Of a DNA stretch of 64,000 nucleotides, positions 32,954 to 64,000 are shown piece after piece. A program made the position numbers and the translations under genes. A model generated the notes under the pieces. It did not search any database. It was not told the origin of the DNA and worked only from the letters and a program-made list of their open reading frames with translations. Position 1 is the stretch's first letter. Each line of letters begins with the position of its first letter. The stretch is taken from NCBI RefSeq assembly GCF_056746865.1, contig NZ_CM163382.1; one strand, given 5' to 3'.

Positions 32954-33029
32954 AAGCTTGTAAGCGGCGCCACCAAAATCATCGTGAAATGATATCCTTC
33001 ATCATTCGTAATGTTTTCCGGATGATGGG

Positions 33030-34016: not shown

Positions 34017-34032
34017 TCGGAGAGAGTAGATC

Positions 34033-34659
34033 ATGAAAAAGATTTGGCTGGCGCTGGCTGGTTTAGTTTTAGCGTTTAGCGCATCGGCGGCGCAGTATGA
34101 AGATGGTAAACAGTACACTACCCTGGAAAAACCAGTTGCTGGCGCGCCGCAAGTGCTGGAGTTTTTCTCTTTCTTCTGCCCGCACTGCTATCAGTTTGAA
34201 GAAGTTCTGCATATTTCTGATAACGTGAAGAAAAAACTGCCGGAAGGCGTGAAGATGACTAAATACCACGTCAACTTCATGGGTGGTGACCTGGGCAAAG
34301 ATCTGACTCAGGCATGGGCAGTGGCGATGGCACTGGGCGTGGAAGACAAAGTCACTGTTCCGCTGTTTGAAGGCGTACAGAAAACCCAGACCATTCGTTC
34401 AGCATCTGATATCCGCGATGTATTTATCAACGCAGGTATTAAAGGTGAAGAGTACGACGCGGCGTGGAACAGCTTCGTGGTGAAATCCCTGGTCGCTCAG
34501 CAGGAAAAAGCTGCAGCTGACGTGCAATTGCGTGGCGTTCCGGCGATGTTTGTTAACGGTAAATATCAGCTGAATCCGCAGGGTATGGATACCAGCAATA
34601 TGGATGTTTTTGTTCAGCAGTATGCTGATACGGTGAAATATCTGTCCGAGAAAAAATAA
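34033..34659 (+). CDS. dsbA: Periplasmic thiol:disulfide oxidoreductase DsbA
   Basis: 208-aa ORF with signal peptide and CPHC active site ([12 protein letters not shown]). Confidence 0.97.
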
Positions 34660-34676
34660 TTCAATGTAAATTACAT

Positions 34677-34707
34677 AAAGCCCGTGAATATTCACGGGCT
34701 TTTTTTA
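34677..34707 (+). terminator. Rho-independent terminator after dsbA
   Basis: Hairpin aagcccgtgaa-tattcacgggctt followed by TTTTTTT. Confidence 0.8.
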
Positions 34708-34813
34708 TTATTTAATAAATATAAATACATTCTGATAATGCATCCTGCCGCTGGACATTATTTCAGCATAAGTGGATATTCAAAGTTTTGCTGTTTTATC
34801 AGGGAATATTTAT

Positions 34814-36244
34814 ATGATACGTAAGTCAGCTACAGGTGTTATTGTTGCGTTAGCCGTAATCTGGGGTGGTGGCACATGGTACACAGGTACGCAAATTCAG
34901 CCTGGTGTCGAAAAGTTTATTAAAGATTTTAACGATGCTAAAAAGAAAGGTGAACATGCCTGCGATATGACGTTAAGTTATAAAAACTTTGACAAAGGCT
35001 TTTTTAATTCTCATTTTCAAATGCAAATAACATTTGATAACGGTGCACCCGATCTCAATATCAAGCCAGGCCAGAAAGTTGCATTTGATGTGGATGTTGA
35101 GCACGGTCCGTTGCCCATCACAATGTTAATGCGTGGTAATGTCATCCCCGCACTGGCAGCGGCAAAAGTGAACTTAGTGAATAATGAACTGACACAACCG
35201 CTATTTATCGCCGCGAAAAATAAATCGCCCGTGGAAGCGACATTGCGATTCGCGTTTGGTGGCTCATTCTCTACGACATTAGATGTTGCCCCTGCAGAGT
35301 ATGGAAAGTTTTCTTTTGGTGAGGGCCAGTTTACTTTTAATGGTGATGGTAGTTCATTGTCTAACCTGGATATTGAAGGCAAAGTCGAAGATATTGTTCT
35401 GCAATTATCACCAATGAACAAAGTAACGGCAAAAAGTTTTACCATTGATTCTCTGGCGCGATTAGAAGAAAAGAAATTTCCGGTTGGTGAAAGCGAGTCG
35501 AAATTTAATCAGATTAACATTATCAATCACGGGGAAGACGTTGCCCAAATCGATGCTTTCGTTGCAAAAACCAGGCTGGATCGCGTTAAAGACAAAGATT
35601 ATATCAATGTCAATCTGACCTACGAACTTGATAAGTTAACAAAAGGGAATCAGCAACTCGGTAGTGGTGAGTGGTCATTGATTGCTGAATCTATTGATCC
35701 CTCAGCAGTGCGCCAATTTATCATCCAGTATAACATTGCGATGCAGAAGCAGCTTGCTGCACACCCTGAGTTAGCAAACGATGAAGTTGCTCTGCAAGAA
35801 GTGAATGCTGCATTGTTCAAAGAGTATTTACCGTTATTACAAAAAAGTGAGCCGACCATTAAACAACCGGTAAGATGGAAGAATGCACTCGGCGAACTAA
35901 ATGCCAATCTGGATATCAGTATTGCCGACCCAGCCAAATCCTCATCATCCACAAACAAAGATATTAAATCGCTCAATTTTGATGTGAAGTTACCGCTTAA
36001 TGTCGTCACAGAAACCGCAAAACAGCTTAATTTATCTGAAGGAATGGATGCTGAAAAAGCGCAAAAGCGGGCTGATAAACAAATCAGCGGGATGATGACA
36101 TTAGGTCAGATGTTTCAGTTAATCACGATTGACAACAATACCGCCTCGCTGCAACTGCGTTATACACCGGGTAAAGTTGTTTTTAACGGACAGGAAATGA
36201 GCGAAGAAGAATTTATGTCTCGTGCCGGACGTTTTGTTCATTAA
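34814..36244 (+). CDS. yihF: DUF945 family protein YihF, N-terminal signal/TM segment, function unknown
   Basis: ORF 34772-36244; likely start ATG 34814 (MIRKSATGVIVALAVIWGGGTWYTG...), 476 aa. Confidence 0.85.
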   Translation: MIRKSATGVIVALAVIWGGGTWYTGTQIQPGVEKFIKDFNDAKKKGEHACDMTLSYKNFDKGFFNSHFQMQITFDNGAPDLNIKPGQKVAFDVDVEHGPLPITMLMRGNVIPALAAAKVNLVNNELTQPLFIAAKNKSPVEATLRFAFGGSFSTTLDVAPAEYGKFSFGEGQFTFNGDGSSLSNLDIEGKVEDIVLQLSPMNKVTAKSFTIDSLARLEEKKFPVGESESKFNQINIINHGEDVAQIDAFVAKTRLDRVKDKDYINVNLTYELDKLTKGNQQLGSGEWSLIAESIDPSAVRQFIIQYNIAMQKQLAAHPELANDEVALQEVNAALFKEYLPLLQKSEPTIKQPVRWKNALGELNANLDISIADPAKSSSSTNKDIKSLNFDVKLPLNVVTETAKQLNLSEGMDAEKAQKRADKQISGMMTLGQMFQLITIDNNTASLQLRYTPGKVVFNGQEMSEEEFMSRAGRFVH

Positions 36245-36251
36245 AATACTC

Positions 36252-36279
36252 ACTCGCCTCTGCTCATTCAGAGGCGAGT
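36252..36279. terminator. Bidirectional terminator hairpin between convergent yihF and yihG
   Basis: Inverted repeat actcgcctctg-ctcatt-cagaggcgagt with A/T-rich flanks on both sides. Confidence 0.65.
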
Positions 36280-36284
36280 AAAAC

Positions 36285-37217
36285 TTACTTATTCTGACGC
36301 TGTGATGACATCAACGACGTCAGAAGTCGGTCTTTTTCCTGCCACAGTGAGTTCAGCCATTGCTGAAAATGGCGCTTAAAGCTTTTGTCATTGATGTAGT
36401 CGCCATGTAACTCATCGGCAATAGGCTGTAAATCCACATGTACGACAATTCGCGTCAGTTTACCGCTTAACATATCGAAGAACGGCTGACGGTTATTGTC
36501 CGGATAACATAGCGTAACATTAAGCAGTTTATCGAATTGTTTACCCAGTACATTTAGCGCCATCGCAATGCCTGCCGCCTTTGGTGGCAACAAGTTTTGA
36601 AAAGTGGAGTGCGTTTGCTGATGTTTTTCTTGCGTGAAACGGGAGCCTTCAACGAAATTAACAATGGTGGTGGGATGCAGGCGAAACTTTTCACAAGAAC
36701 GCCGAGTAGTTTCAACATCTTTACCACGTCTCTCCGGATGACGTAATAAATAAGCGCGGGAATAACGCTTCATAAACGGCATATCCAGCGCCCAGCATGC
36801 CAGGCCAAGAAAAGGCACCCAGGCCAGCTGCTGCTTGAGGAAATATTTATTCATCGGAATGTGCTTACGAAACAGCACGCACAGTACGACAATATCTGCC
36901 CAACTACGGTGGTTACAAATAAGCAGATACCAGTTTTTCTTACTTAACCCTTCCAGCCCGTGAACTTCCCATTGCAGGTGTGGGTTCAAATGCAGTAATA
37001 CCGCCAGACCTTCACACCAGCAATACATCATAAAATCACAAAAACGCGAAACCTTTCGCCAAATGACTGGCACAGGAAGCAATAGTTTTACAATCCCGGC
37101 AATGATGATCGGGACGGAGCAAAAAATAGTGACCAAAATGGTCAATACGATACTCAGCAAAAGGGTTATCGCAGCGAGTATTCTCGTCATAATGAATTTA
37201 TTCAAAAAGTTAGCCAT
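36285..37217 (-). CDS. yihG: PlsC-family acyltransferase YihG (membrane)
   Basis: ORF 36285-37241; probable start at 37215-37217 ([16 protein letters not shown]...), 310 aa; HxxxxD acyltransferase motif (CNHRSWAD). Confidence 0.82.
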
Positions 37218-37448
37218 AGACAGTGCGCTAAAGAAGCGCAAGGCGCAGATTTTAGCAGAAAACGACCCAAATAACGGATGATCCTTAAGGAGAAAAATAA
37301 TTCATATCTATCCACATTAGAAAAAATCCCATCATCTCAATTATTAGGGATGGTCTTATTTTTAACTTCATGAAAAACAAAGACAAACATCATGCTGTAA
37401 AAAGCATGATAATAAATTAAAAGCGATGTAAATAATTTATGCACAAAG

Positions 37449-37457
37449 TTATCCACA
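37449..37457 (+). promoter_or_regulatory. DnaA box (TTATCCACA) in the polA promoter region
   Basis: Perfect 9-mer TTATCCACA about 125 bp upstream of polA; a second near-match TCTATCCACA at 37307-37316. Confidence 0.65.
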
Positions 37458-37580
37458 TGACGATTTGCGAGCGATCCAGAAGATCTACAAAAGATTTTCA
37501 CGAAAAGCGGTGAAAAACTCATGTTTTCATCCTGTCTGTGGCATCCTTTACCCATAATCTGATAAACAGGCACGGACATT

Positions 37581-40367
37581 ATGGTTCAGATCCCCCAAAA
37601 TCCACTTATCCTTGTAGATGGTTCATCTTATCTTTATCGCGCATATCACGCGTTTCCCCCGCTGACTAACAGCGCAGGCGAGCCGACCGGTGCGATGTAT
37701 GGTGTCCTCAACATGCTGCGCAGTCTGATCATGCAATATAAACCGACGCATGCAGCGGTGGTCTTTGACGCCAAGGGAAAAACCTTTCGTGATGAACTGT
37801 TTGAACATTACAAATCACATCGCCCGCCAATGCCGGACGATCTGCGTGCACAAATCGAACCCTTGCACGCGATGGTTAAAGCGATGGGACTGCCGCTGCT
37901 GGCGGTTTCTGGCGTAGAAGCGGACGACGTTATCGGTACTCTGGCGCGGGAAGCCGAAAAAGCCGGGCGTCCGGTGCTGATCAGCACTGGCGATAAAGAT
38001 ATGGCGCAGCTGGTGACGCCAAATATTACGCTTATCAATACCATGACGAATACCATCCTCGGCCCGGAAGAGGTGGTGAATAAGTACGGCGTGCCGCCAG
38101 AACTGATCATCGACTTCCTGGCGCTGATGGGTGACTCCTCTGATAACATCCCTGGCGTACCGGGCGTCGGTGAAAAAACCGCGCAGGCATTGCTGCAAGG
38201 TCTTGGCGGACTGGATACGCTGTATGCCGAGCCAGAAAAAATTGCTGGGTTGAGCTTCCGTGGCGCGAAAACAATGGCAGCGAAGCTCGAGCAAAACAAA
38301 GAAGTTGCTTATCTCTCATACCAGCTGGCGACGATTAAAACCGACGTTGAACTGGAGCTGACCTGTGAACAACTGGAAGTGCAGCAACCGGCGGCGGAAG
38401 AGTTGTTGGGGCTGTTCAAAAAGTATGAGTTCAAACGCTGGACTGCTGATGTCGAAGCGGGCAAATGGTTACAGGCTAAAGGGGCGAAACCCGCAGCCAG
38501 GCCGCAGGAAACCAGTGTTGCAGACGAAGCGCCAGAAGTGACGGCAACGGTGATTTCTTATGACAACTACGTCACCATCCTTGATGAAGAAACACTGAAA
38601 GCGTGGATTGCGAAGCTGGAAAAAGCGCCAGTATTTGCATTTGATACCGAAACCGACAGCCTCGATAACATCTCTGCCAACCTGGTCGGGCTTTCTTTTG
38701 CTATCGAGCCAGGCGTAGCGGCATATATTCCGGTTGCTCATGATTATCTTGATGCGCCCGATCAAATCTCTCGCGAGCGTGCACTCGAGTTGCTAAAACC
38801 GTTGCTGGAAAATGAAAAGGCGCTGAAGGTCGGGCAAAACCTGAAATACGACCGCGGTATTCTGGCGAATTACGGAATTGAGCTGCGTGGGATTGCGTTT
38901 GATACCATGCTGGAGTCCTACATTCTCAATAGCGTTGCCGGGCGTCACGATATGGACAGCCTCGCGGAACGTTGGTTGAAGCACAAAACCATCACTTTTG
39001 AAGAGATTGCGGGTAAAGGCAAAAATCAACTGACCTTTAACCAGATTGCCCTCGAAGAGGCCGGACGTTACGCCGCCGAAGATGCGGATGTCACCTTGCA
39101 GTTGCATCTGAAAATGTGGCCGGATCTGCAAAAACACAAAGGGCCGTTGAACGTCTTCGAGAATATCGAAATGCCGCTGGTGCCGGTGCTTTCACGCATT
39201 GAACGTAACGGTGTGAAGATCGATCCGAAAGTGCTGCACAATCATTCTGAAGAGCTCACTCTTCGTCTGGCTGAGCTGGAAAAGAAAGCGCATGAAATTG
39301 CAGGTGAGGAGTTTAACCTTTCCTCCACCAAGCAGTTGCAAACCATTCTGTTTGAAAAACAGGGAATTAAACCGCTGAAGAAAACGCCGGGTGGCGCGCC
39401 GTCAACGTCGGAAGAGGTACTGGAAGAACTGGCGCTGGACTATCCGTTGCCAAAAGTGATTCTGGAGTATCGTGGTCTGGCGAAGCTGAAATCGACCTAC
39501 ACCGACAAGCTGCCGCTGATGATCAACCCGAAAACCGGGCGTGTACATACCTCTTATCACCAGGCAGTAACTGCAACGGGACGTTTATCGTCAACCGATC
39601 CTAACCTGCAAAACATTCCGGTGCGTAACGAAGAAGGTCGTCGTATCCGCCAGGCGTTTATTGGGCCAGAGGATTATGTGATTGTCTCGGCGGACTACTC
39701 GCAGATTGAACTGCGCATTATGGCGCATCTCTCGCGTGACAAAGGCTTGCTGACCGCATTCGCGGAAGGAAAAGATATCCACCGGGCTACGGCGGCAGAA
39801 GTGTTTGGTTTGCCACTGGAAACCGTCACCAGCGAGCAACGCCGTAGCGCGAAAGCGATCAACTTTGGTCTGATTTATGGCATGAGTGCTTTCGGTCTGG
39901 CGCGGCAATTGAACATTCCACGTAAAGAAGCGCAGAAGTACATGGACCTTTACTTCGAACGCTACCCTGGCGTGCTGGAGTATATGGAACGCACCCGTGC
40001 TCAGGCGAAAGAGCAGGGCTACGTTGAAACACTGGACGGACGCCGTCTGTATCTGCCGGATATCAAATCCAGCAATGGTGCTCGTCGTGCAGCGGCTGAA
40101 CGTGCAGCCATTAACGCGCCAATGCAGGGAACCGCCGCCGACATTATCAAACGGGCGATGATTGCCGTTGATGCGTGGCTACAGGCTGAGCAACCGCGTG
40201 TGCGTATGATCATGCAGGTACACGATGAACTGGTATTTGAAGTTCATAAAGATGATGTCGATGCCGTCGCGAAGCAGATTCATCAACTGATGGAAAACTG
40301 TACCCGTCTGGATGTGCCGTTGCTGGTGGAAGTGGGGAGTGGCGAAAACTGGGATCAGGCGCACTAA
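37581..40367 (+). CDS. polA: DNA polymerase I
   Basis: 928-aa [28 protein letters not shown]... with 5'-3' exo, 3'-5' exo and polymerase domains. Confidence 0.98.
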
Positions 40368-40623: not shown

Positions 40624-40647
40624 TTGGGCGAAAGAAAAGCTCTGTAA

Positions 40648-50748: not shown

Positions 50749-50911
50749 TGTCGTGAGCGCACACCAATGCGAGTATCTCCCTTATAAGTCTGTGATTACG
50801 TCAATAGAGAGCTTTGTCACAATTATCTGCAAAGTCATACACCGTTAATTGCTTTCTTTTTTGGCGTAAGCGTAAGATGCTTCATCTGGTTTAAACCAAA
50901 AGGATTAAACA

Positions 50912-51622
50912 ATGGCGGAGAATCAATCCACCGTAGAAAATGCAAAAGAGAAACTGGATCGGTGGTTGAAAGATGGCATCACCACGCCGGGTGGAAAACT
51001 CCCTTCAGAAAGAGAGCTGGGAGAACTGCTGGGCATTAAACGTATGACGCTGCGCCAGGCGTTGTTGAACCTCGAGGCAGAATCCAAAATCTTCCGTAAG
51101 GATCGTAAGGGGTGGTTCGTGACCCAGCCGCGATTTAATTACAGTCCGGAGCTGTCAGCGAGCTTTCAGCGGGCCGCAATTGAGCAAGGACGAGAGCCTT
51201 CCTGGGGGTTTACCGAGAAAAACCGTACCAGCGATATTCCCGAGACGCTCGCGCCACTGATTGCAGTGACACCATCAACTGAACTCTATCGCATCACCGG
51301 CTGGGGGGCGCTGGAAGGACATAAAGTTTTCTATCACGAAACATATATTAATCCTGAAGTTGCTCCGGGTTTTATTGAACAACTTGAAAACCACTCATTT
51401 TCTGCAGTCTGGGAAAAGTGCTACCAAAAAGAGACGGTAGTAAAAAAATTGATTTTCAAACCCGTCAGAATGCCGGGCGATATCAGCAAGTATCTTGGCG
51501 GTTCTGTGGGTATGCCAGCGATCTTAATTGAAAAGCATCGCGCCGACCAGCAAGGCAATATTGTCCAGATAGATATTGAATATTGGCGATTTGAGGCCGT
51601 AGACCTCATCATTAATCTGTAG
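50912..51622 (+). CDS. yihL: GntR-family transcriptional regulator YihL
   Basis: 236-aa ORF with N-terminal wHTH (LPSERELGELLGIKRMTLRQAL) and UTRA-like C-terminus. Confidence 0.88.
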   Translation: MAENQSTVENAKEKLDRWLKDGITTPGGKLPSERELGELLGIKRMTLRQALLNLEAESKIFRKDRKGWFVTQPRFNYSPELSASFQRAAIEQGREPSWGFTEKNRTSDIPETLAPLIAVTPSTELYRITGWGALEGHKVFYHETYINPEVAPGFIEQLENHSFSAVWEKCYQKETVVKKLIFKPVRMPGDISKYLGGSVGMPAILIEKHRADQQGNIVQIDIEYWRFEAVDLIINL

Positions 51623-51629
51623 GTGTTTT

Positions 51630-53871
<2,242 letters not shown>

Positions 53872-53972
53872 TAAGTTTTAACTCATACGCAGTTAATAAA
53901 ACCATTCGATATGAATGGTCGGTATCTTATTGCCTTTAAAACAGTGATTTTAAAAATCGCTTAGGGGATGTT

Positions 53973-55238
53973 ATGCTCACGAAAAAGAAATGGGCGTTAT
54001 TTAGTCTATTAACATTGTGTGGCGGTACAATTTATAAATTACCGTCGCTGAAAGATGCGTTTTATATCCCGATGCAGGAATATTTCCATTTGACCAATGG
54101 TCAAATTGGTAATGCTATGTCGGTAAACTCATTTGTCACGACAGTGGGCTTTTTTCTGTCTATTTATTTTGCCGATAAACTACCGCGCAGATACACCATG
54201 TCATTCTCACTCATTGCGACAGGATTACTGGGTGTTTATTTGACGACAATGCCGGGATATTGGGGCATCCTCTTTGTCTGGGCGCTATTTGGCGTTACTT
54301 GCGACATGATGAACTGGCCGGTCTTGCTCAAGTCGGTAAGTCGATTGGGCAATAGCGAACAACAAGGTCGGTTGTTTGGCTTCTTCGAAACAGGGCGTGG
54401 CATTGTCGATACCGTGGTGGCATTTTCTGCGTTGGCAGTATTTACCTGGTTTGGCAGTGGCTTATTGGGTTTTAAAGCAGGCATCTGGTTCTATTCCCTT
54501 ATTGTGATTGCCGTAGGCATTATCATTTTCTTTGTTCTGAATGACAAAGAAGAGGCACCGTCCGTTGAGGTGAAAAAAGAAGACGGAGCATCGAAAAACA
54601 CCAGTATGACCTCGGTGCTGAAAGACAAAACTATCTGGCTTATCGCTTTCAACGTCTTCTTCGTTTACGCGGTTTACTGTGGCCTGACATTCTTCATTCC
54701 ATTCCTGAAAAACATCTATCTATTGCCCGTTGCGCTGGTGGGGGCTTACGGCATCATTAACCAATACTGTCTGAAAATGATTGGTGGACCGATTGGTGGC
54801 ATGATTTCAGATAAGATCCTGAAATCGCCGAGTAAATATCTATGCTACACCTTTATCATCAGTACCGCTGCGCTCGTACTGTTGATTATGCTGCCGCACG
54901 AAAGTATGCCGGTATATTTAGGGATGGCATGTACGCTGGGCTTTGGCGCGATAGTCTTTACACAGCGAGCCGTATTTTTTGCACCTATCGGCGAAGCAAA
55001 AATTGCTGAAAATAAAACAGGCGCGGCGATGGCGTTGGGTAGCTTTATTGGTTACGCCCCGGCGATGTTCTGCTTCAGTCTGTATGGCTACATTCTGGAT
55101 TTAAATCCGGGGATTATTGGCTACAAAATTGTGTTTGGCATTATGGCCTGCTTCGCATTCTGTGGTGCGGTGGTTTCCGTAATGCTGGTTAAGCGTATTA
55201 GCCAACGTAAGAAAGAGATGCTGGCGGCTGAAGCTTGA
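53973..55238 (+). CDS. yihN: MFS-family transporter YihN
   Basis: 421-aa polytopic membrane ORF. Confidence 0.88.
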   Translation: MLTKKKWALFSLLTLCGGTIYKLPSLKDAFYIPMQEYFHLTNGQIGNAMSVNSFVTTVGFFLSIYFADKLPRRYTMSFSLIATGLLGVYLTTMPGYWGILFVWALFGVTCDMMNWPVLLKSVSRLGNSEQQGRLFGFFETGRGIVDTVVAFSALAVFTWFGSGLLGFKAGIWFYSLIVIAVGIIIFFVLNDKEEAPSVEVKKEDGASKNTSMTSVLKDKTIWLIAFNVFFVYAVYCGLTFFIPFLKNIYLLPVALVGAYGIINQYCLKMIGGPIGGMISDKILKSPSKYLCYTFIISTAALVLLIMLPHESMPVYLGMACTLGFGAIVFTQRAVFFAPIGEAKIAENKTGAAMALGSFIGYAPAMFCFSLYGYILDLNPGIIGYKIVFGIMACFAFCGAVVSVMLVKRISQRKKEMLAAEA

Positions 55239-55243
55239 TTAAT

Positions 55244-55321
55244 GGCCGGATGTGGCTTAATCCGGCCAACGGAAACCGTATCAACCGTAGGCCGGATAAG
55301 GCGTTTTCGCCGCATCCGGCA
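55244..55321. repeat. REP elements between convergent yihN and ompL
   Basis: GGCCGGATgtggcttaATCCGGCC and GCCGGATAAGGCGTTTTCGCCGCATCCGGC palindromic units. Confidence 0.75.
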
Positions 55322-55329
55322 GTTTTACA

Positions 55330-56022
55330 TCAGAAGAAATACTTCGTCCCGATACGAATCTGGTTTTGCTCGCGGTGGTACGGTTCGACATTACGATCTA
55401 ACCAGCGTAATTCGAAATAAGGGAGCCAGTGTTCATTAATGCGATAACGGAAGGTGTTAGTGATTTCCCAGTGATGATCTTTTCCATTGCTGCTATTAAA
55501 GTCATTTACTCGCATGAAGTAATGTGGTTCAAATGTATAGGAGAATTTCTCGGTGATTTTAAAATTCCAGTAGGTGCCAACTTCATAGGTGTCGTTATTA
55601 TCCAATTCGCCGTTCAAATCTGTAGAGCTGTAATTATTATGGTTATAGCGATTACGCACCGTCAGGTTAAACCACGGAGTAAATTTGTAGTTAACATCCA
55701 GATAAACGGCACCACCCGAACCGATACTCTTGTCATTAATTAAGCCACCGGGCTGGATGGTTAATTTATCGGTTGGTTTAAATAAAGGATACCAACCTTC
55801 AATTTCATTATAGCCATGTTTGAGTTCATCTTCTCGCTGAAAGGTGTAGGTATTGGTTAACATAATACCCGCGCCCATATCGAAGTTATAACCCACGCGT
55901 AGCATAACTTCGCCCTGATCGGAGGCGAGATTATATGCCTCCCTGTTTTCGACGTATGCGCCAGCAAATACCGAGGCAGAGGTCAGAGAGGATAATAGAA
56001 TTATTGCATTAATCTTTTTCAT
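55330..56022 (-). CDS. ompL: Outer-membrane porin OmpL
   Basis: ORF 55330-56088; start ATG 56020-56022 (MKKINAIILLSSLTSASVFA signal peptide), 230 aa; C-terminal aromatic residue (F). Confidence 0.88.
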   Translation of the reverse strand: MKKINAIILLSSLTSASVFAGAYVENREAYNLASDQGEVMLRVGYNFDMGAGIMLTNTYTFQREDELKHGYNEIEGWYPLFKPTDKLTIQPGGLINDKSIGSGGAVYLDVNYKFTPWFNLTVRNRYNHNNYSSTDLNGELDNNDTYEVGTYWNFKITEKFSYTFEPHYFMRVNDFNSSNGKDHHWEITNTFRYRINEHWLPYFELRWLDRNVEPYHREQNQIRIGTKYFF

Positions 56023-56088
56023 AATAAGTCCATTTTTAAACGTAGGGAGGCCGCCACCCACCAGGATGGAAATAGCGGCTATTGACAT

Positions 56089-57492
56089 TTATAACGTTAC
56101 GGAAGCCGTTTTTTCTTCTGTCGCCATCTCTTTATTTTTGCGTTGGTTGATTTCCTCAATAATCAATGCAAACCGTTTTTCATTGAGTGTGTAAAAGAAT
56201 CCCATCGTTAATGCAGCAATAATTGCCAGCGCACAAGGCCAGATAAAAATGAGCTGACGCAAACCCTGTAATGTCGCATCACTTTGCGCGATGTTGGGAA
56301 CATAACCGATTTGCGTCAGCATAATGCCTGGCAAGAAGCCAGCAAGTGCGGCAGAAATTTTACGAAAGAAGGTATAACCGGTATAAACAGAACCTTCGGC
56401 ACGAATACCGGTTTTCCATTCACCGTAATCTACGGTATCTGGTACCAGCGCCCAGTTCAGGCTGTTCACAAAGGCCGTGCCAAAAAAGGCGACACAAGAG
56501 AACATGACAAAAGTGAAAGAGTTACTTCCCCAGAAATAATTCAGGATATCACCAACCGCCCATAGCACCATGCCAGCTAAATAAACCTGTTTTTTACCAA
56601 AACATTTTACAGTTAATGGCACCAGTAATACGCCGACGAGGATACATCCCATACTGAAAAATCCCATCCACGACAATAAATTAATATCATTCAGCACATA
56701 TTGGGTGTAATAGACCTGAATCGCCAGTTTGATATTAAATGCCGCCAGGGTACACAGGTTAGCAATGCACAAAACCAGCAATGGCGGATTACGAAATATC
56801 GCGCAAAAAGATTTGAGAATACTGGCTTTATGTCCGGTTGGCGCTGTGTCCACATAATGCTCTTTGACGCCTCTGTAGCACAGCATCATAAAAATAAAGC
56901 CACCAATGGAGAACATCAGTGCCGCGCAGGCATAACCGACGGTGGAGTCAGAAAAAAGCGACTGCAACGGAATAAACGCCACGGTACAAATCAATAGCCC
57001 TATGGTTGCACCACCCTGGCGGTAAGCCGCGAGCTGCGCGCGCTCATTCGGGTTTTTGGTAATGGCCGGGATCATCGCGCCATACGAGCAGTTCATCAGA
57101 CTGTATGAAAGCCCAAACATCATAAACAGTGCTGTGGCAATCGTCGTTTTAACCGGCAAACTAAAAGTGGTGGCGATAAACTGGAGCGTTGCAATTAACG
57201 CCGCCGGAACCGCTGCGTATAAAATAAACGGCCTGAACTTTCCTTTAGGCCCAATATTTTTCCGCGAATCGAGTAAAAATCCGGTGAGCATATCGGTAAA
57301 CGCGGTAAAAAACTTCGCCACCAGAAAGATAATCCCGCCATAGTAAGCAGGCATCCCTAATTCATCGGTATAAAATTTGAGGAGATACAGAGTGCCGATG
57401 CTAAGCATTAAATTCGAACCGACGTCGCCCATGCCATAGGCGATTTTTTCCCGCAGATTCAGTTTTAATGTCAGTGGATTATGGTCAGACAT
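56089..57492 (-). CDS. yihO: GPH-family (glycoside-pentoside-hexuronide:cation) transporter YihO, putative sulfoquinovose or sulfonated-sugar importer
   Basis: ORF 56089-57498; start ATG 57490-57492 (MSDHNPLTLKL...), 467 aa. Confidence 0.88.
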   Translation of the reverse strand: MSDHNPLTLKLNLREKIAYGMGDVGSNLMLSIGTLYLLKFYTDELGMPAYYGGIIFLVAKFFTAFTDMLTGFLLDSRKNIGPKGKFRPFILYAAVPAALIATLQFIATTFSLPVKTTIATALFMMFGLSYSLMNCSYGAMIPAITKNPNERAQLAAYRQGGATIGLLICTVAFIPLQSLFSDSTVGYACAALMFSIGGFIFMMLCYRGVKEHYVDTAPTGHKASILKSFCAIFRNPPLLVLCIANLCTLAAFNIKLAIQVYYTQYVLNDINLLSWMGFFSMGCILVGVLLVPLTVKCFGKKQVYLAGMVLWAVGDILNYFWGSNSFTFVMFSCVAFFGTAFVNSLNWALVPDTVDYGEWKTGIRAEGSVYTGYTFFRKISAALAGFLPGIMLTQIGYVPNIAQSDATLQGLRQLIFIWPCALAIIAALTMGFFYTLNEKRFALIIEEINQRKNKEMATEEKTASVTL

Positions 57493-57532
57493 AATCACTC
57501 CTTATAACGCCCCGCAGGGCGTTGTTTATTAT

Positions 57533-58918
57533 TTATTCCGTGCGTTTACGGGCTTCTATTTCTTCAACAATGCGGACGTACATTTTCTCGTTCAGACTGT
57601 AGAAACAACCCATCGCAACAATGGTGACTACCGCCAGTGCGCTTGGGTAGATGAAGATCAGCTGGCGTAAACCTTCGATGGTATGGTCAGCCTGGGCGAC
57701 GTTTGGCACATAGCCGATTTGCGTCAGCATCCAGCCTGGGAAGAAACCAGCCAGCGCCTGAGAAACTTTGCGAAAGAAGGTGAAACCGGTGTAGACCGTC
57801 CCTTCCGAACGCACGCCGGTGCGCCATTCGCCATATTCCACGGTGTCGGAAATCAGCGCCCAGTTCAGGCTGTTAACAAACGCTGAGCCGAAGAATGCCA
57901 GGCAGGAGAACGTCACGAAGCTGACCGAACCGCCGCCAAAGAAATAGTTGAGCAGATCGCCAAGCACCCAAATCAGCAGGCCGCCGATATAGACCTTCTT
58001 CTTACCAAAACGTCTGACTGCGCCAGGCATCAGGAACACGCCGATGAAAATACAGCCCATGCTGAAAAATCCCATATATGACAACAGGATGGGATCGTTA
58101 AGCACGTACTGGGTGTAATAAACCTGAATGGCGAGCTTGACGTTAAACGCCCCTAAGGTGCAGAGGTTAGCAATACACAGAATGAACAGCGGGCGGTTAC
58201 CGGCAATTGCGCGGAAAGATTGCAACAGGCCAGGCTTTTGCGCCGGATTGGTAGGTTGGGTTTCGACATAACGCTCTTTCACGCCCGAGTAGCAGATCCA
58301 CATAAACAGCAGGCCGAACAGTGAAAACAGCGTGGCAGCGAAGATATAGCCAATTTGCTGATTACCTTCGATAAGATTCATAACCGGCACGAATCCCACC
58401 GTACACAGCAGCAGGCCCAGCGTAGCGCCGCCCTGACGCCATGCCGCCAGTGAGGCGCGCTCGTTGGGATTTTTGGTGATGGCAGGCACCATTGCGCCGT
58501 AGGAACAGTTCATCATGCTGAAAAACAGTCCATAAAGCATAAACAGGATAGTGGCCATCACCGTTTTACCGGTGACATCGAACGGCGTACCGATAAAGTT
58601 GGCGATCGCCAGTAAGGTAACCGGGAATGACGCATACAGAATAAAAGGACGGAACTTACCTTTTGGACCGATCTTGCGTCGGGAATCCAACATGATGCCG
58701 GTTCCCATATCGGTAAAGGCGGTAAAGAATTTCGAGATCAAAAAGATAATGCCGCCATAGGTACCAGGTAGCCCCAGAACGTCGGTATAAAACTTCAAAA
58801 GATAAAGCGTACCAATATCCAGCAGGATGTTAGAGGCCAGGTCGCCAATACCGTAAGAGAGTTTCTCTTTAAAGGGCAGGCGTAAAGTTGCTGGATCTTC
58901 CGTTGTGATGTGACTCAT
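57533..58918 (-). CDS. yihP: GPH-family transporter YihP, paralog of YihO
   Basis: ORF 57533-58951; probable start ATG 58916-58918 (MSHITTEDPATLRL...), about 461 aa; shares long conserved blocks with YihO. Confidence 0.85.
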   Translation of the reverse strand: MSHITTEDPATLRLPFKEKLSYGIGDLASNILLDIGTLYLLKFYTDVLGLPGTYGGIIFLISKFFTAFTDMGTGIMLDSRRKIGPKGKFRPFILYASFPVTLLAIANFIGTPFDVTGKTVMATILFMLYGLFFSMMNCSYGAMVPAITKNPNERASLAAWRQGGATLGLLLCTVGFVPVMNLIEGNQQIGYIFAATLFSLFGLLFMWICYSGVKERYVETQPTNPAQKPGLLQSFRAIAGNRPLFILCIANLCTLGAFNVKLAIQVYYTQYVLNDPILLSYMGFFSMGCIFIGVFLMPGAVRRFGKKKVYIGGLLIWVLGDLLNYFFGGGSVSFVTFSCLAFFGSAFVNSLNWALISDTVEYGEWRTGVRSEGTVYTGFTFFRKVSQALAGFFPGWMLTQIGYVPNVAQADHTIEGLRQLIFIYPSALAVVTIVAMGCFYSLNEKMYVRIVEEIEARKRTE

Positions 58919-58963
58919 CGATGTTCTCCCTTTGCCCATGAGTTTCCCCACGGGCGAATGTGA

Positions 58964-61000
58964 TTAGATGCTTTTTAACGACGCGAACAGTGCCGCCCAT
59001 TCGCTATCGGCGCGATAAAAGACCGGCGGCTTGCCGATGGGCGCATTAACGGTCACTTCCCCGCCCCGGAACGCTTCACCCGTCCAGGCGTGCACCCAGT
59101 TATCCTCCGGCAGATAGAGCGTCCAGTCGCTACGGCCTTCTTCATGCACCGGAGCGACCAGAATGTCGCGACCTAACAGGTACTGATATTTCAGGGTGTA
59201 AGTGTGCGCATCGTCTTCGTAATGCAGGAACAGCGGGCGCATGACCGGCAGACCGGACTTCGCATTCAGCGCGACGGCCTCTTTCAGGTAAGGTTTCAGG
59301 GTGGTGAAGACGGTGGTCATACGGGCAAAATGGGCGATAGTTTCCGCGTCGCCGTCAAACTGCCAGTTGTCGCCCGGACGGTTGCCTTCGTGGGTGCGCA
59401 TCATCGGCGTGAAGGCGCTGAAATCACACCAGCGCAGTAGCAGCTCTTTGCTGCGCTTCATCTCAAACAGGGTGGTGTAACCGCCAATGTCGCTGTGATG
59501 CAGGCCATGTCCGGTCATTGCCAGCGACAGCGCCGCCGGGACAACCGACGCCAGGCCATCGTCCAGACTCCAGTCGACGTTCTGGTCACCCGCCCACATC
59601 ATGGTGGAGTATTTCTGGCTACCGGTAGAACCGGCGCGCATAAAGAAAAGGATCTCGCCGAGCTTGCCCGTTTCTTCAAGGGCTTCGTAGTTACATTTCG
59701 CCCACAGCGCTGGCCAGGCGTTATGCATAATCTCCGCGCTGACGCCGTTATGCAGGTACGTGTCGGTGGGCAGATACTCGCCGAAGTCAGCCATCCAGCC
59801 GCCGCAGCCAAGTTCAATCATGTTCTTTTTGATCACTTCCTTGAACCAGGCGTAGGCTTCTGGATTGGTGAGGTCGACAACGCCGCCATAGAACTCGCCA
59901 AACTCCACCAGATAGTCGCCGCCAGAGGCATCTTTTGCCAGATAACCGCGCTTTGCCGCCTCTTCGCAGAGATCTTTATCGCTGGCGACATACGGGTTGA
60001 TATAGGCCAGGAACTGCACGCCCTCTTTGTTCCACTGCTTAATACGTGAGTCCAGTTGCGGATAGTTTTCGCTGTTCCACTTCCAGTTCCACATTACGCG
60101 TTTGCCAAAAGAGGTCATACGGATCCCGGACCAGTCCTGCGCCCAGATGCCGTTAACCTTCACACCCGCGTTACGCATGGTGTCCAGTTTCTTCTGACAC
60201 ACTTCCGTCCCGCCCTGAATGCCGAGCGTTACCCCGTCATAAATCCAGTCGGGCAGTTCTGGCTGGCGTCCCAGCAGGGCAGTTAATTTTTCCAGCAGGG
60301 AGATGTATGTATCAGCACATTCAAAACGCAGCGTTGCTTTGTCTTCCCACAGCGCCAGTTCATGGTATTCCGGGGCGCTAAAGTCGAAGTTCATGTAGCA
60401 ACTGTTATCAACATGGCAGTAATACTTCTGCGTGCTGACAAACGTAGGCTGTGGGAAGAAAGTCCAGTAATAGTCGCCGCCCGCGTTCTCTTTGCAGTCG
60501 GCCTGCCAGGTGACATAGGTTTGCTTGTTGCGACCAACGCCTTGTTCACTGGTCCATAGCGGGAACGGTTTGCCGCGCAGATCGAAGTAGGAAAACTGTT
60601 CGCCGCAGCCGTAGATATGGTCCTCTGGTTGAGCGGCAAGGCGCAGCCAGATGCGGTTGTGGTTAAGGTTGTCGTTTTGTAGTTCCAGCAATAAACGGCC
60701 CTGATCGTCGGCAGAGATATTCAGCGTGGCGCTAATGTCAGAACCACGGCTGAAATGGATTAACCAACCATCCGGTGACTGGCTGACGGTAGCGTCGGTG
60801 AGCGCAATCTTCTCCTGCAATTTATCTTTAATGCTGAAATTACCGCGGAACATATCGATATCCGCTATACCTGAGCCAATCCATAAACAAGGATTATCTT
60901 TACTATGGGTTAAAATAAGACGGCCCTGAAAACGTAGGGTAAGACTGTCGTTATTCTGATGAAATTGAAAATCTAATAACTGTGGGCGTGGCGTATCCAT
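58964..61000 (-). CDS. yihQ: Sulfoquinovosidase (GH31 alpha-glycosidase)
   Basis: 678-aa ORF matching YihQ. Confidence 0.92.
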   Translation of the reverse strand: MDTPRPQLLDFQFHQNNDSLTLRFQGRLILTHSKDNPCLWIGSGIADIDMFRGNFSIKDKLQEKIALTDATVSQSPDGWLIHFSRGSDISATLNISADDQGRLLLELQNDNLNHNRIWLRLAAQPEDHIYGCGEQFSYFDLRGKPFPLWTSEQGVGRNKQTYVTWQADCKENAGGDYYWTFFPQPTFVSTQKYYCHVDNSCYMNFDFSAPEYHELALWEDKATLRFECADTYISLLEKLTALLGRQPELPDWIYDGVTLGIQGGTEVCQKKLDTMRNAGVKVNGIWAQDWSGIRMTSFGKRVMWNWKWNSENYPQLDSRIKQWNKEGVQFLAYINPYVASDKDLCEEAAKRGYLAKDASGGDYLVEFGEFYGGVVDLTNPEAYAWFKEVIKKNMIELGCGGWMADFGEYLPTDTYLHNGVSAEIMHNAWPALWAKCNYEALEETGKLGEILFFMRAGSTGSQKYSTMMWAGDQNVDWSLDDGLASVVPAALSLAMTGHGLHHSDIGGYTTLFEMKRSKELLLRWCDFSAFTPMMRTHEGNRPGDNWQFDGDAETIAHFARMTTVFTTLKPYLKEAVALNAKSGLPVMRPLFLHYEDDAHTYTLKYQYLLGRDILVAPVHEEGRSDWTLYLPEDNWVHAWTGEAFRGGEVTVNAPIGKPPVFYRADSEWAALFASLKSI

Positions 61001-61204
61001 AAATAATCTCCATAGAGTTGAGAACGAGGTTGTTTCCTTCCTGTTATTGTTATTACAGGCTTATGTAAAATGATTCTCATAAAACTGATATATATAAACT
61101 TTAAAGAAGCTGAGCTGTTTTTAACTTAATAAATTGATGATACATAACGTTGCCTTTAGCGAGTGAAATGTTCTTCAATGATTTTGACTGCTAATCAATA
61201 CAAG

Positions 61205-62116
61205 TTATTTTCTCTGTCCGTAAATATTAAAAAACAGGCGGTGTGTTTTTCCGGGTTGCAGTAATATTAAATCGGTGCCGGAATTAAACGCATCAGGCGG
61301 GCAACTCATAGGTTCAACTGCCAGTCCCTGACGCTGTAATTTTTCACCGCTATAAACCTGCACCCAGGGTTGATCGCAACAGAGGCTCACCGAAAGCAAA
61401 TGCTGTGGATGGGTAATGGTCATTTCCCACAGGTCATTAGCGGTTTTAAAGGTATGGTCTATTTTTGTCGCGGCTATTTTTGTCGCCCGCGTGAAATTTA
61501 AATTCAGCTCATCAACGTGGTGAAGCGTTGTCGGATTTGCGTGCTCATCGACGGCATAAACCTGTTCTGCCGGAAGCTGGAAAAGATAGTCATCAACAGA
61601 TGTTAAGTTGCAGGTTAAATAAGGATGAATACCCACACCATAAGGTGCGGTCACAGTACCAATATTCTGGCTTGCGATCTCAACGGAAAGGCCCGTGCGA
61701 GCGTTGAGCGAATAAACAACCTGCGAAGCCAGCATAAACGGATAGCCGTAACTGGGCGGCAGAAAAGCTGTCAGGGTAACGCTGGTGGCGGTTAATTCGC
61801 TAATTTGCCAGTCACGCCAGGCAAGCAGCCCGTGAATAGCGGCTTTTGAACTATGTTCATTAATGGGTAACTGATAGTCCTGCCCCTGATAGCGGTAACA
61901 GCCGTTGGCGATCCGGTTCGGCCACGGAATAAGCACTTTACCCAGATGCGCCAGCGGCATCTCTTCGGGTTTGTGCGGGATGACTAAATGACAACCCTGA
62001 AAGGTTAATTCAGCCAGACCAGCACCAACCGTCACGATAGTCGCGTGATAATCCCCCGCGGCAAGTGAAACGGTTTGTCCACTGCAATGCATGTTGGTGA
62101 TTTGCATACGAGGCAC
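61205..62116 (-). CDS. yihR: Aldose-1-epimerase family protein (sulfoquinovose mutarotase)
   Basis: 303-aa ORF (annotated length may differ by a few N-terminal codons). Confidence 0.85.
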   Translation of the reverse strand: MPRMQITNMHCSGQTVSLAAGDYHATIVTVGAGLAELTFQGCHLVIPHKPEEMPLAHLGKVLIPWPNRIANGCYRYQGQDYQLPINEHSSKAAIHGLLAWRDWQISELTATSVTLTAFLPPSYGYPFMLASQVVYSLNARTGLSVEIASQNIGTVTAPYGVGIHPYLTCNLTSVDDYLFQLPAEQVYAVDEHANPTTLHHVDELNLNFTRATKIAATKIDHTFKTANDLWEMTITHPQHLLSVSLCCDQPWVQVYSGEKLQRQGLAVEPMSCPPDAFNSGTDLILLQPGKTHRLFFNIYGQRK

Positions 62117-62174
62117 CTTTATTGAATAACGACATACCCGGCATGTAGCCTGATATGCCGTTATTTCAGCTCAG

Positions 62175-63416
62175 TTATTTCGCGTTAATGTCCAGCAGGC
62201 CTGCGGCAACAGCCGGTGCCAGACCAGGGGCTAACGGGATACGCGGGATCACCAGGCAATGCAGCAGGTGATAAATATCCTGTTTGCCGTCCCAGACTTT
62301 CGTGGTGACTTTATTGTCCGCATCCAGCTCCTGCCACCAGGAACCATTTTCATAGTCCATCAGGTACTTAATGCAGTAGTCCCACCATGTCTGATACCAG
62401 GTTTCATACTGGCGATCGCCGGTGACGGTGTAGAGCGCGTAAGCCGTACCCATCGCTTCGACGATAGGCCAACGCACACGTTCGCGAACCACCGGTTTGC
62501 CTTCCCAGTCAACGGTATAAACAATCCCGTCCGCGCCATCGGGTGCCCAGGCATCGCGCACGGTGGCGTTAAATAGACCTTTGGCATCTTCTAGCAGCCA
62601 GGCAGGCGGCTGTTCACAACGGGCTTCCAGGGCCGCGTGGATGTGCAGCATTAAACGGCCCCATTCGATCCAGTGGCCCGGCGTGCCACCGAATGCGCGG
62701 AAGCGGTGCGCCGGGTTATCTTTGTTGTAATCCGGCAGCGGATTCCACTGGGTATCGAAGTGCTCGTTAACGCGATAATGATTATTTCTGGCGACGTCGT
62801 GGATAATCACGGAAGCCACGCGAATCGCGCGATCCAGCCATTTTTTGTCGTGCGTTACGTCATAAACAATCAGGAAGGCTTCCACCGCGTGCATGTTGGC
62901 ATTGCCGCCGCGGTACTCTTCGGTTTTGCTGAAGGCTTCGTCCCACGACTCCAGGCACATCTGCTCTTCTTCACTCCAGAAATATTTTTCAATAATTTCA
63001 ATGGTGTAATCGAGCAGCTTGCGTGCTTCCGGGTGACCGGTAGTGACGGCACTGGCGGCACCCAGCAGAGCAAAGAAGTGTTGATAGCCTTGTTTGGAGG
63101 CATCCACCACGCCCTCGTCATTCACGCAGGCATACCAGCCGCCATATTTTTTATCGCGCAGTGCGCCATTCATGGCTTTGATACCGTGATCAACCAACGA
63201 GTAAGCGCCAGGGCGGCCCATCGCCGCAGCAACGGAATAAACGTGCAGCATACGGGCGGTGATCCACAGATGCGTGCCCATCTCTTCTTTGATTTGCCCT
63301 TTATTGCCCAGCCAGCCAAAGCCAGTCGGCACTACGGCATTCTTACCAAAATCAAAGATGCGATCGGTTTCCTGTTCCAGCCAGCGGTTGTGACTTAAGG
63401 TGTTAAACCATTTCAT
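62175..63416 (-). CDS. yihS: Sulfoquinovose isomerase (AGE/N-acyl-glucosamine-epimerase fold)
   Basis: 413-aa ORF matching YihS. Confidence 0.92.
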
Positions 63417-63431
63417 TTTTGTATCCCCATC

Positions 63432-64000
63432 TTAACGGCGTTTAGCCATCATTTCGTCGACGATATCGCCAAGTTGTTGTAATTTCGGTGCGCAAACGTC
63501 ACGCAGCATCAGCTCGTTGTCTGGTAAACCGACAACCGATGCCCAGACGGCACGACCAGCCAGGAAGCCCGATGCACCCGCTGTCATTGCCACGCGTACG
63601 GCACGCGGGAACAGTTTTTCGTCGACACCGGAAGAAAGTATCACCCACGGCATATTGATATGGTCATTCAGACGTTGTGAAGCACTGAGAAGCTCTTGTT
63701 GCGGACCTTTACCGTAAAGCGGCATTTCAACTTTGTAGAGGTCAGCGCCACTGTCGCCCAGCTCTTTGGCAGCATCGATGATCGCTTGTTCGCGATCGAA
63801 TTTATCGCCACGACGTGGTGGGCGGACGACTGGCTCAATAATGCTTACCAGGCCGTGTGAGTGGCACAGTTCGTTAAACTCTTTCACCATATCCAGACGT
63901 TGCTGCGCATCTTCATCACTACGCCACAGCACCAGCAGTTTTAAGGCTTTGCCACCGTCTTGTTTGATTTGTAGCGGATTGATTTTGCGGTCAATGACCA
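63432..64000 (-). CDS. yihT: 6-deoxy-6-sulfofructose-1-phosphate aldolase YihT, C-terminal part only (gene runs off the window edge)
   Basis: Minus-strand frame is open from 63432 to the window edge (...[38 protein letters not shown]...); ORF-track entry starts at an internal GTG. Confidence 0.85.

Follow-up and report, generated by a model that had tools for sequence, protein, structure and literature searches.

Seven co-oriented genes occupy the end of the 64,000-nucleotide stretch of DNA analysed here (the window), and two of them encode closely related transporters. Which pathway does this block serve, what do its two transporters do, and is it an old resident of the chromosome or a recent arrival? 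Several annotated E. coli chromosomes are 100% identical to positions 55330–64000, and gene coordinates were taken from the annotation of one identical record, NZ_CP030768.1, and recalculated to window positions. Relative to the window this record is shifted by 1 bp, an offset that sets in somewhere between about 30 and 32 kb, within the rrn operon or shortly behind it. The block, with all genes on the minus strand, is composed as follows:

55330–56022, minus strand: ompL, a KdgM-family outer-membrane porin of 230 aa from the annotated start (longest ORF 252 aa)
56089–57492, minus strand: yihO, a GPH-family (MFS_2) transporter of 467 aa, the sulfoquinovose importer
57504–57525, in the 40-bp yihP-yihO spacer: G+C-rich palindrome ATAACGCCCCGCAGGGCGTTGT, found in the terminator-like scan and possibly an mRNA hairpin
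57533–58918, minus strand: yihP, a GPH-family transporter of 461 aa, paralog of yihO and putative DHPS exporter
58964–61000, minus strand: yihQ, a GH31 sulfoquinovosidase of 678 aa
61001–61204: AT-rich yihQ-yihR spacer
61205–62107, minus strand: yihR, aldose-1-epimerase family, sulfoquinovose mutarotase (Pfam Aldose_epim, E=6e-58; NCBIfam PRK15172, 609 bits)
62175–63416, minus strand: yihS, sulfoquinovose-sulfofructose isomerase with a GlcNAc 2-epimerase fold (Pfam PF07221, E=6e-140), annotated 'sulfoquinovose isomerase'
63432–64000 (window end), minus strand: yihT, sulfofructose-1-phosphate aldolase, of which the C-terminal 188 codons are present (Pfam DeoC, E=4e-41)

The initial annotation had read these genes as a sulfoquinovose (sulfoglycolysis) cluster, and both this reading and each of its gene assignments agree with the annotated identical records and with Pfam and NCBIfam, which place yihT in the DeoC/LacD aldolase family. 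In the identical record a complete yihT is followed by yihU, yihV and csqR past the window end. The four genes whose co-location marks a sulfo-EMP cluster are thus accounted for, yihS and the 3' part of yihT in the window and yihU and yihV in the identical record. This is the known E. coli sulfo-EMP (sulfoglycolysis) cassette, which is already published and not new. It shares genes, order, strand and site (between yihN/typA and yihX) with the cassette of K-12 (Denger et al. 2014), the 'long cassette' of PMC12608037, and both lack a TauE gene. Unlike the K-12 cassette, that of the window is a minority allele, and the adjoining yihM is disrupted by ISEc31. We are highly confident that the block comprises the first seven genes of the ten-gene ompL-yihOPQRSTUVW cluster, that it serves the pathway described below, and that YihO and YihP are anciently duplicated, retained transporters with an anion-tuned pocket. 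A promoter- and terminator-like scan of positions 55000–64000 returned 11 against 11.5 and 14 against 10.6 ± 3.5 expected from shuffled sequence; since the counts equal the shuffled expectation, no operon boundaries could be drawn.

Growth of K-12 on sulfoquinovose with excretion of DHPS is established in the literature, and the sulfo-EMP enzymes YihQ, YihR, YihS, YihV, YihT and YihU have all been published. We determined whether the window proteins carry the corresponding signatures. OmpL matches the Pfam profile KdgM (PF06178) over its full length (positions 1–222 of 222, E=3e-90) and the NCBIfam equivalog 'porin OmpL' at 473 bits, and a signal peptide, MKKINAIILLSSLTSASVFA, can be read from its sequence; it thus shows both features of the KdgM porin family. 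Its closest solved structure is NanC, a sialic-acid channel (E=9e-10). In these matches OmpL resembles the small 12-stranded acidic-sugar porins KdgM and NanC, but those conduct carboxylated sugars whereas the presumed substrate of OmpL is a sulfonated one. At 16 of the 29 Enterobacterales loci sampled, about half, the gene lies next to yihO, and it is induced on sulfoquinovose (PMC12608037). By analogy with its family OmpL is presumed to be the outer-membrane entry channel for anionic sulfosugars.

YihQ matched NCBIfam PRK10426 at 1243 bits. Q288, R301, W304, Y508, D405 and D472 (K-12 numbering) are all present, the last two of which we take to be the nucleophile and the acid/base, respectively. 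The first four constitute the Q/E-RWY sulfonate-recognition motif (PMC12780224), and YihQ hence combines the Asp pair and the motif of a YihQ-type GH31 sulfoquinovosidase. The protein has no signal peptide and is therefore placed in the cytoplasm. Along the proposed route, sulfoquinovose and its glycerol glycoside would pass the outer membrane, probably via OmpL, as porins of the KdgM type carry acidic sugars. Passage of the inner membrane would occur through YihO, probably together with H+; evidence for the import step comes from a knockout, and H+ is the ion suggested by the pocket residues. In the cytoplasm YihQ cleaves the glycosides, YihR interconverts the anomers and YihS converts sulfoquinovose to sulfofructose. 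Phosphorylation by YihV is followed by cleavage by YihT to DHAP and sulfolactaldehyde, the latter being reduced by YihU to DHPS. For the exit of DHPS YihP is the most likely candidate, an assignment to which we give about even chances.

The two transporters had been proposed to be paralogs with near-identical sequence blocks. We found 65% identity and 81% similarity over 458 aa (E = 0), well over the 30% set as the lower limit for that claim, with a nucleotide identity of 66%; the blocks VYYTQYVLND and LSxMGFFSMGCI both lie within the alignment. This degree of paralogy is already known from the literature. Both proteins belong to the GPH family, scoring 529 bits (YihO) and 535 bits (YihP) against TIGR00792 gph with its cut-off of 231. 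In a neighbor-joining tree they fall into separate YihO and YihP clades with Serratia and E. coli members in each, so that full-length similarity and separate orthologous clades are both present, as expected of a paralog pair. Of 29 loci, drawn from about 20 genera (Anaerobiospirillum among them), 26 show the order yihQ-yihP-yihO; at four of these 26 a TauE gene separates yihQ from yihP. Because the tandem yihP-yihO is conserved across Enterobacterales, the duplication is ancient; judged from tree and gene order, it predates the Enterobacterales radiation, both copies having been retained in tandem since. Lone GPH transporters adjoining yihQ in two Firmicutes are marginally nearer YihP (p-distance 0.474 vs 0.500 and 0.550 vs 0.565), but in a relative-rate test with these Firmicute outgroups the asymmetry was too slight to tell which paralog retained the original function.

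The closest solved structure to YihO is MelB, the Salmonella/E. coli melibiose:Na+ symporter and prototype of the GPH (MFS_2) family, which aligns end to end with YihO and YihP (E=2e-40) and whose residue roles were taken from PMC8329300. The equivalents of MelB Asp59 (the proton site), Thr373 and Lys377 are kept in both paralogs. In contrast, the sugar-binding Asp19 and Asp124 are replaced by Asn, the Na+-site residues Asp55 (partner of the pocket Lys) and Asn58 by Thr, and Trp128 and Trp342 are lost. At the position of Val376 both carry an Arg, new and adjacent to the pocket Lys377. Of the Na+ site as a whole (Asp55, Asn58, Asp59, Thr121) only the Asp59 equivalent is retained, the others being Thr, Thr and Ser. 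The N/N/T/R substitutions and the K377 and D59 equivalents are invariant in 26 YihO and 25 YihP sequences. Such changes suggest an anion pocket and coupling to H+ rather than Na+; Na+ coupling is unlikely for either transporter. When the two pockets are compared with each other, 19 of 23 MelB-equivalent positions are identical and invariant across both clades, and the four differences are just Tyr/Phe and Thr/Ser swaps at the hydroxyl level. These four differences, F126, Y130, T339 and Y373 in YihO against Y129, F133, S345 and F379 in YihP, do not discriminate between a division into import and export and a division into sugar and glycoside uptake.

How, then, may the two transporters share the work? 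That the substrates of porin and transporters are not evident from sequence, as had been remarked initially, is borne out by the literature of 2021–2026, in which YihP is still termed a putative DHPS exporter. For YihO, PMC6278857 cites Denger 2014 for a deletion that abolishes growth on sulfoquinovose. We therefore considered the distribution of the transporters together with that of TauE-type (TSUP) permeases, the proposed C3-sulfonate exporters of other sulfoquinovose degraders. Of the complete E. coli genomes, 24% carry a TauE/SafE gene where the window has its yihQ-yihR spacer; O157:H7 and WEM25 have the gene at this position. The window belongs to the cassettes without TauE, and neither tblastn nor blastn of its yihQ-yihR spacer detected a TauE remnant. 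Among the 29 sampled loci YihO occurs with YihP in 19, with YihP and TauE in seven, and with TauE but without YihP in one (K. quasipneumoniae, where TauE takes the place of YihP). All sampled loci with an intact yihQ thus carry YihO plus YihP and/or TauE, and YihO alone was found in none. A strict anticorrelation of TauE and YihP was considered and rejected: the two occur together in O157:H7 and in six or seven further taxa, and replacement is confined to K. quasipneumoniae.

The initial annotation had suggested that the duplicates were subfunctionalised for free sugar and glycoside. The division proposed in the literature is into import by YihO and export by YihP, and the pattern of YihO with YihP and/or TauE fits it slightly better than a sugar/glycoside split. 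Export of DHPS by YihP is a reading that we hold at about even odds. Several observations weigh against it. GPH proteins are normally uptake symporters, for which a role in export is unusual. YihP and TauE occur together in the seven sampled loci mentioned and in about 1,288 E. coli genomes, about a third of the E. coli long cassettes, and would be redundant if both exported DHPS. Finally, the proximity of the Firmicute single transporters to YihP would suit a retained ancestral role in import.

Natural fusions of the two genes bear on the same question. Rare yihP::yihO fusion genes arose at least three times, with three different breakpoints. They were present in 5 of about 3,891 complete genomes, whereas 3,869 complete genomes had coverage of at least 80% for the segment that the fusions remove, a stretch reaching across the two genes. 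Because fusions are so rare, a cost is suggested. A junction query for the L003-type fusion found none in complete genomes, although the paralogs are 85% similar near the junction, which blurs this signal. Of the fusion strains, WEM25 carries TauE; two others, L003 and 2013C-4187, have no TauE and, if YihP were the exporter, would be left without a dedicated one.

In a rival reading both paralogs would be importers, YihO of free sulfoquinovose and YihP of sulfoquinovosyl glycerol, other glycosides or another sulfosugar, with DHPS leaving through a TauE-type permease or an unlinked exporter. The uptake habit of GPH proteins, the retention of YihP beside TauE and the Firmicute distances favour it; moreover, a YihQ without signal peptide requires that glycosides enter the cytoplasm, and one of the four pocket differences falls at the position of MelB T338, by the aglycone-side sugar. 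However, the commonest cluster type (the 19 loci with both transporters only, K-12 and the window) would be left exporterless, K. quasipneumoniae has yihQ but no YihP, and Tyr/Phe and Thr/Ser swaps are small changes for fitting an extra glycerol. We regard a second importer as a tentative, rather unlikely solution.

Alternatively, either paralog might do both, exchanging incoming sulfoquinovose for outgoing DHPS, with the copies differing mainly in affinity, coupling or expression. LacS, which exchanges lactose for galactose, provides a model for such a carrier. Pockets that agree at 19 of 23 invariant positions would suit it, as would the chemistry of DHPS, which is established to correspond to the C4-C6 end of sulfoquinovose, and the repeated origin and persistence of fusions, some of them without TauE. 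The loss of growth upon deletion of yihO alone, however, means that YihP cannot replace YihO, and the rarity and suggested cost of the fusions as well as the retention of both copies across about 20 genera speak against interchangeable carriers. An exchanger appears improbable to us.

It remains to ask how the cassette came to its site. The region from about 50.9 kb onward had been described as A/T-rich and hence as a possible acquired catabolic island. An overall drop in GC was confirmed (0.489 for 50901–64000 vs 0.518 for 1–50900), and the per-gene GC from yihL to yihT differs from that of the core genes (p=0.005). The A/T-richness is patchy: ompL (0.413), yihO (0.452), yihR (0.488) and yihL/M/N (0.42–0.485) lie below the core mean of 0.523, whereas yihP (0.511), yihQ (0.542), yihS (0.546) and yihT (0.520) are near or above it. 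An equally AT-rich patch exists among the core genes at 33–38 kb (yihF 0.415, yihG 0.446). When the seven cluster genes were compared with 39 core genes, neither GC (p=0.13) nor GC3 (p=0.83) nor synonymous-codon likelihood (p=0.77) set them apart, and an island by composition is thus not what these genes show. The typA-side position of the cluster is shared by Citrobacter, Klebsiella, Enterobacter, Pectobacterium, Mixta, Kluyvera, Buttiauxella and Cronobacter; because the typA neighbourhood is kept across so many genera, the cluster is an old resident and not a recent arrival.

Within E. coli the locus is nevertheless variable, although long resident. The cassette query remained unmatched in 1,400 of 5,426 complete genomes (about 26%), and just 122 of the 4,026 matching genomes reached at least 99% identity over the 8.7 kb, most ranging at 90–99%. 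Strains diverge by 3–10% at the cluster in comparison to about 1% in the flanks. The yihQ-yihR spacer is hypervariable, and BLAST matched it to none of four other E. coli cassettes; long and short cassettes have been described in the species (PMC12608037). Unmatched genomes, raised divergence, low GC and the IS element inside yihM could all be cited for a recent A/T-rich island, comprising the cluster or everything from 50.9 kb to the window end, but with core-like GC3 and codon usage, a typA/yihX-adjacent site that is filled rather than empty in related genera, no sign of integrase, tRNA or direct-repeat borders in the gene annotation of this stretch and a sole mobility gene lying outside the cluster, this reading is largely refuted by synteny and we consider it very improbable.

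In summary, the enzymes of the pathway are solved, and the window leaves the existing picture unchanged. The parent sulfolipid, or sulfoquinovose itself, amounts to about ten billion tonnes per year according to the literature, and the cassette serves as a model for the breakdown of this plant sulfo-sugar by gut and plant-associated bacteria. The rule that YihO is accompanied by YihP and/or TauE supports the model of import and export, for which the fusion strains provide natural single-transporter material for probing. Should YihP instead be a second importer, these strains and the cassettes with or without TauE could map the part of the protein that sets specificity. The pocket residues offer a rationale for how a MelB-type pocket may have been converted to sulfonate binding.

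Seven open reading frames run in the same direction on the minus strand between positions 55330 and 64000. Several complete E. coli chromosomes carry the segment with 100% identity and annotate its genes as ompL, yihO, yihP, yihQ (sulfoquinovosidase), yihR, yihS (sulfoquinovose isomerase) and yihT. Profile searches were concordant with all seven assignments. The sulfoquinovose cluster of the initial annotation is confirmed, name included; the system is well known. Since yihU, yihV and csqR directly follow yihT in the identical chromosomes, the window end cuts a ten-gene cassette within yihT. YihQ has no signal peptide. It contains the sulfonate-recognition motif known from the literature (Q288, R301, W304 and Y508) as well as D405 and D472. 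A G+C-rich palindrome with a 9-bp stem (57504–57525) lies in the 40-bp yihP-yihO spacer.

Products by profile search and GC content (ompL to yihT: 55330–64000, minus strand)
ompL: KdgM porin, OmpL equivalog; GC 0.413
yihO: GPH/MFS_2 transporter; GC 0.452
yihP: GPH/MFS_2 transporter; GC 0.511
yihQ: GH31; GC 0.542
yihR: aldose 1-epimerase; GC 0.488
yihS: GlcNAc-2-epimerase fold; GC 0.546
yihT: DeoC/LacD aldolase; GC 0.520
yihL/M/N: GC 0.42–0.485
Mean of 39 core genes: GC 0.523

The DNA from about 50.9 kb onward had been described as A/T-rich, in keeping with an acquired island. GC content is indeed lower in 50901–64000 than in the upstream part of the window (0.489 versus 0.518), but the drop is patchy from gene to gene, and a similar AT-rich patch occurs at 33000–38000 amid the housekeeping genes srkA, dsbA, yihF and yihG (GC 0.415–0.49), where GC falls as far as in the poorest stretch of the yih region. 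Compared with 39 core genes located in the window, the seven genes showed no difference in GC (p=0.13), GC3 (p=0.83) or synonymous-codon likelihood (p=0.77). These are the measures by which the island was to be judged, and by them its compositional case fails for the seven genes.

We compared 29 related loci, which represent about 20 genera. Often the cluster occupies the same site, between typA and yihX/yihY, for example in Citrobacter, Klebsiella spallanzanii, Enterobacter, Pectobacterium, Mixta, Kluyvera, Buttiauxella and Cronobacter. This shared site points to a vertical history and not to recent insertion. Neither composition nor synteny supports an acquired island. Even so, E. coli strains vary unusually at this locus: the cluster was matched in only 4,026 of 5,426 complete genomes, in agreement with the 2025 description of long and short cassettes (PMC12608037). 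From ompL to yihS (55330–63416) DNA identity to four other E. coli strains (loci L003, L005, L006, L087) is 90–97%, with yihT intermediate (96–99%) and the typA, yihL and yihN flanks at about 99%; the 204-bp yihQ-yihR spacer had no match in these strains. The window's allele, at an identity of at least 99%, was found in only 122 of the 4,026 matching genomes. The cassette locus holds deep allelic lineages.

In 1,288 of the 5,426 complete genomes, O157:H7 included, the cassette has an eleventh gene between yihQ and yihR, which encodes a TauE/SafE (TSUP) permease (9651–10526 in L005, 7608–8483 in L006; equivalent site 61001–61204 of the window). The K-12 cassette is without it, and the window contains neither the gene nor a remnant.

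Further differences lie outside the cluster. The yihM gene (51630–53871), intact in other strains, is split by ISEc31 (51987–53244), an IS3-family element with a programmed frameshift in its transposase and imperfect 26-nt terminal inverted repeats (51987–52012 and 53219–53244). Relative to NZ_CP030768.1 the window shows a 1-bp indel at about 30–32 kb, within the rrn operon or directly behind it, and a second difference at position 40643, so window and strain are close relatives with distinct sequences. Among the other genera, the clusters of Yersinia (L088, 2908–6310), Serratia oryzae and Hafnia (L023, L024) retain kinase, reductase, GH31, both transporters and porin. In Yersinia an isomerase of the Fucose_iso_C family and a class II aldolase take the place of YihS/YihT; in Serratia oryzae and Hafnia the observation extends only to missing YihS/YihT homologs. 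These look like a mixed cluster type.

The proposed paralogy of YihO and YihP was borne out: the proteins are 65% identical across 458 residues (DNA 66%), and the sequence blocks quoted in the initial annotation were found in their alignment. Both the paralogy and the 65% figure are already in print. In a neighbour-joining tree of 145 relatives the two clades separate, each with Serratia and E. coli members. The order yihQ-yihP-yihO is found in 26 of the 29 loci, an Anaerobiospirillum genome among them, with a TauE gene inserted between yihQ and yihP in four. YihP evolves more slowly (mean pairwise distance 0.132 versus 0.185 for YihO, same 24 genomes). That both copies have long been kept argues for distinct roles.

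The sulfonate of sulfoquinovose sits on C6. We aligned 26 YihO and 25 YihP sequences with the melibiose symporter MelB. Crystal structures have defined the ligand contacts of MelB, in which the sugar C6-OH is surrounded by Asp124, Gln372 and Lys377 (PMC8329300). Changes relative to MelB are invariant and the same in both clades.

MelB pocket residues and their counterparts in YihO and YihP
Asp19, Asp124: hold sugar hydroxyls in MelB; Asn in both
Asp55: Na+ ligand and salt-bridge partner of Lys377; Thr in both
Asn58: Na+ site; Thr in both
Val376: pocket wall; Arg in both
Lys377: near sugar C6; kept in both
Asp59: likely proton site; kept in both

We infer that the pocket was remodelled to bind an anion, with coupling probably to H+ rather than Na+. 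Between the clades 19 of 23 ligand-proximal positions are identical, and the other four differ in a hydroxyl only (F/Y126, Y/F130, T/S339, Y/F373; YihO numbering). Clade differences are modestly enriched in the pocket (4/23 versus 19/401 elsewhere, one-sided Fisher p=0.03). The alignment shows paralogs that would bind closely related ligands; the four differences do not separate a glycoside from DHPS, the end product that leaves the cell.

A subset of E. coli 'YihO' proteins shares only 88% identity with the YihO of the window, yet 76% with YihP. Sliding comparison revealed clean chimeras, YihP-like over the first ~145 residues and YihO-like thereafter. The gene that encodes such a chimera is the only transporter gene from yihQ to ompL and replaces the tandem pair (8001–9404 in L003/L004, 6048–7460 in L005, 5039–6451 in L087; window 56089–58918). 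Three distinct crossover points (yihO nt 149–159, 192–205 and 432–441) indicate that the tandem copies have recombined unequally at least three times. Fusions are rare (5 of ~3,891 complete genomes carrying this cassette part) and occur with and without TauE; two E. albertii proteins (P0017, P0018) show the same pattern. Fusions and TauE gene are both absent from the 2025 cassette survey (PMC12608037).

In the literature YihO is the importer because yihO deletion abolishes growth on sulfoquinovose (PMC6278857), and YihP was assigned putative DHPS export by elimination. TauE/SafE permeases are of a type proposed as sulfonate exporters in other pathways.

Transporter content of the 29 loci
YihO and YihP: 19
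YihO, YihP and TauE: 7
YihO and TauE, no YihP: 1 (K. quasipneumoniae)
YihO alone, no intact yihQ ORF: 1 (degenerate symbiont)
Truncated locus: 1

Wherever yihQ is intact in the sampled loci, YihO is accompanied by YihP and/or TauE, as a model of import and export predicts. Among the sampled loci, only K. quasipneumoniae has TauE in the yihP slot (yihQ-TauE-yihO; L090, 8954–9907), and it is without yihP and ompL. The chance that YihP is the DHPS exporter is about even; against it, YihP and TauE often occur together, and GPH proteins are usually importers. Two importers sharing free sulfoquinovose and a glycoside, as initially suggested, is a doubtful alternative: the commonest cluster type would be left without an exporter, and K. 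quasipneumoniae would possess the glycosidase but no glycoside importer. Exchange or redundancy between YihO and YihP is improbable. Of the three readings, YihP export is the favored one.
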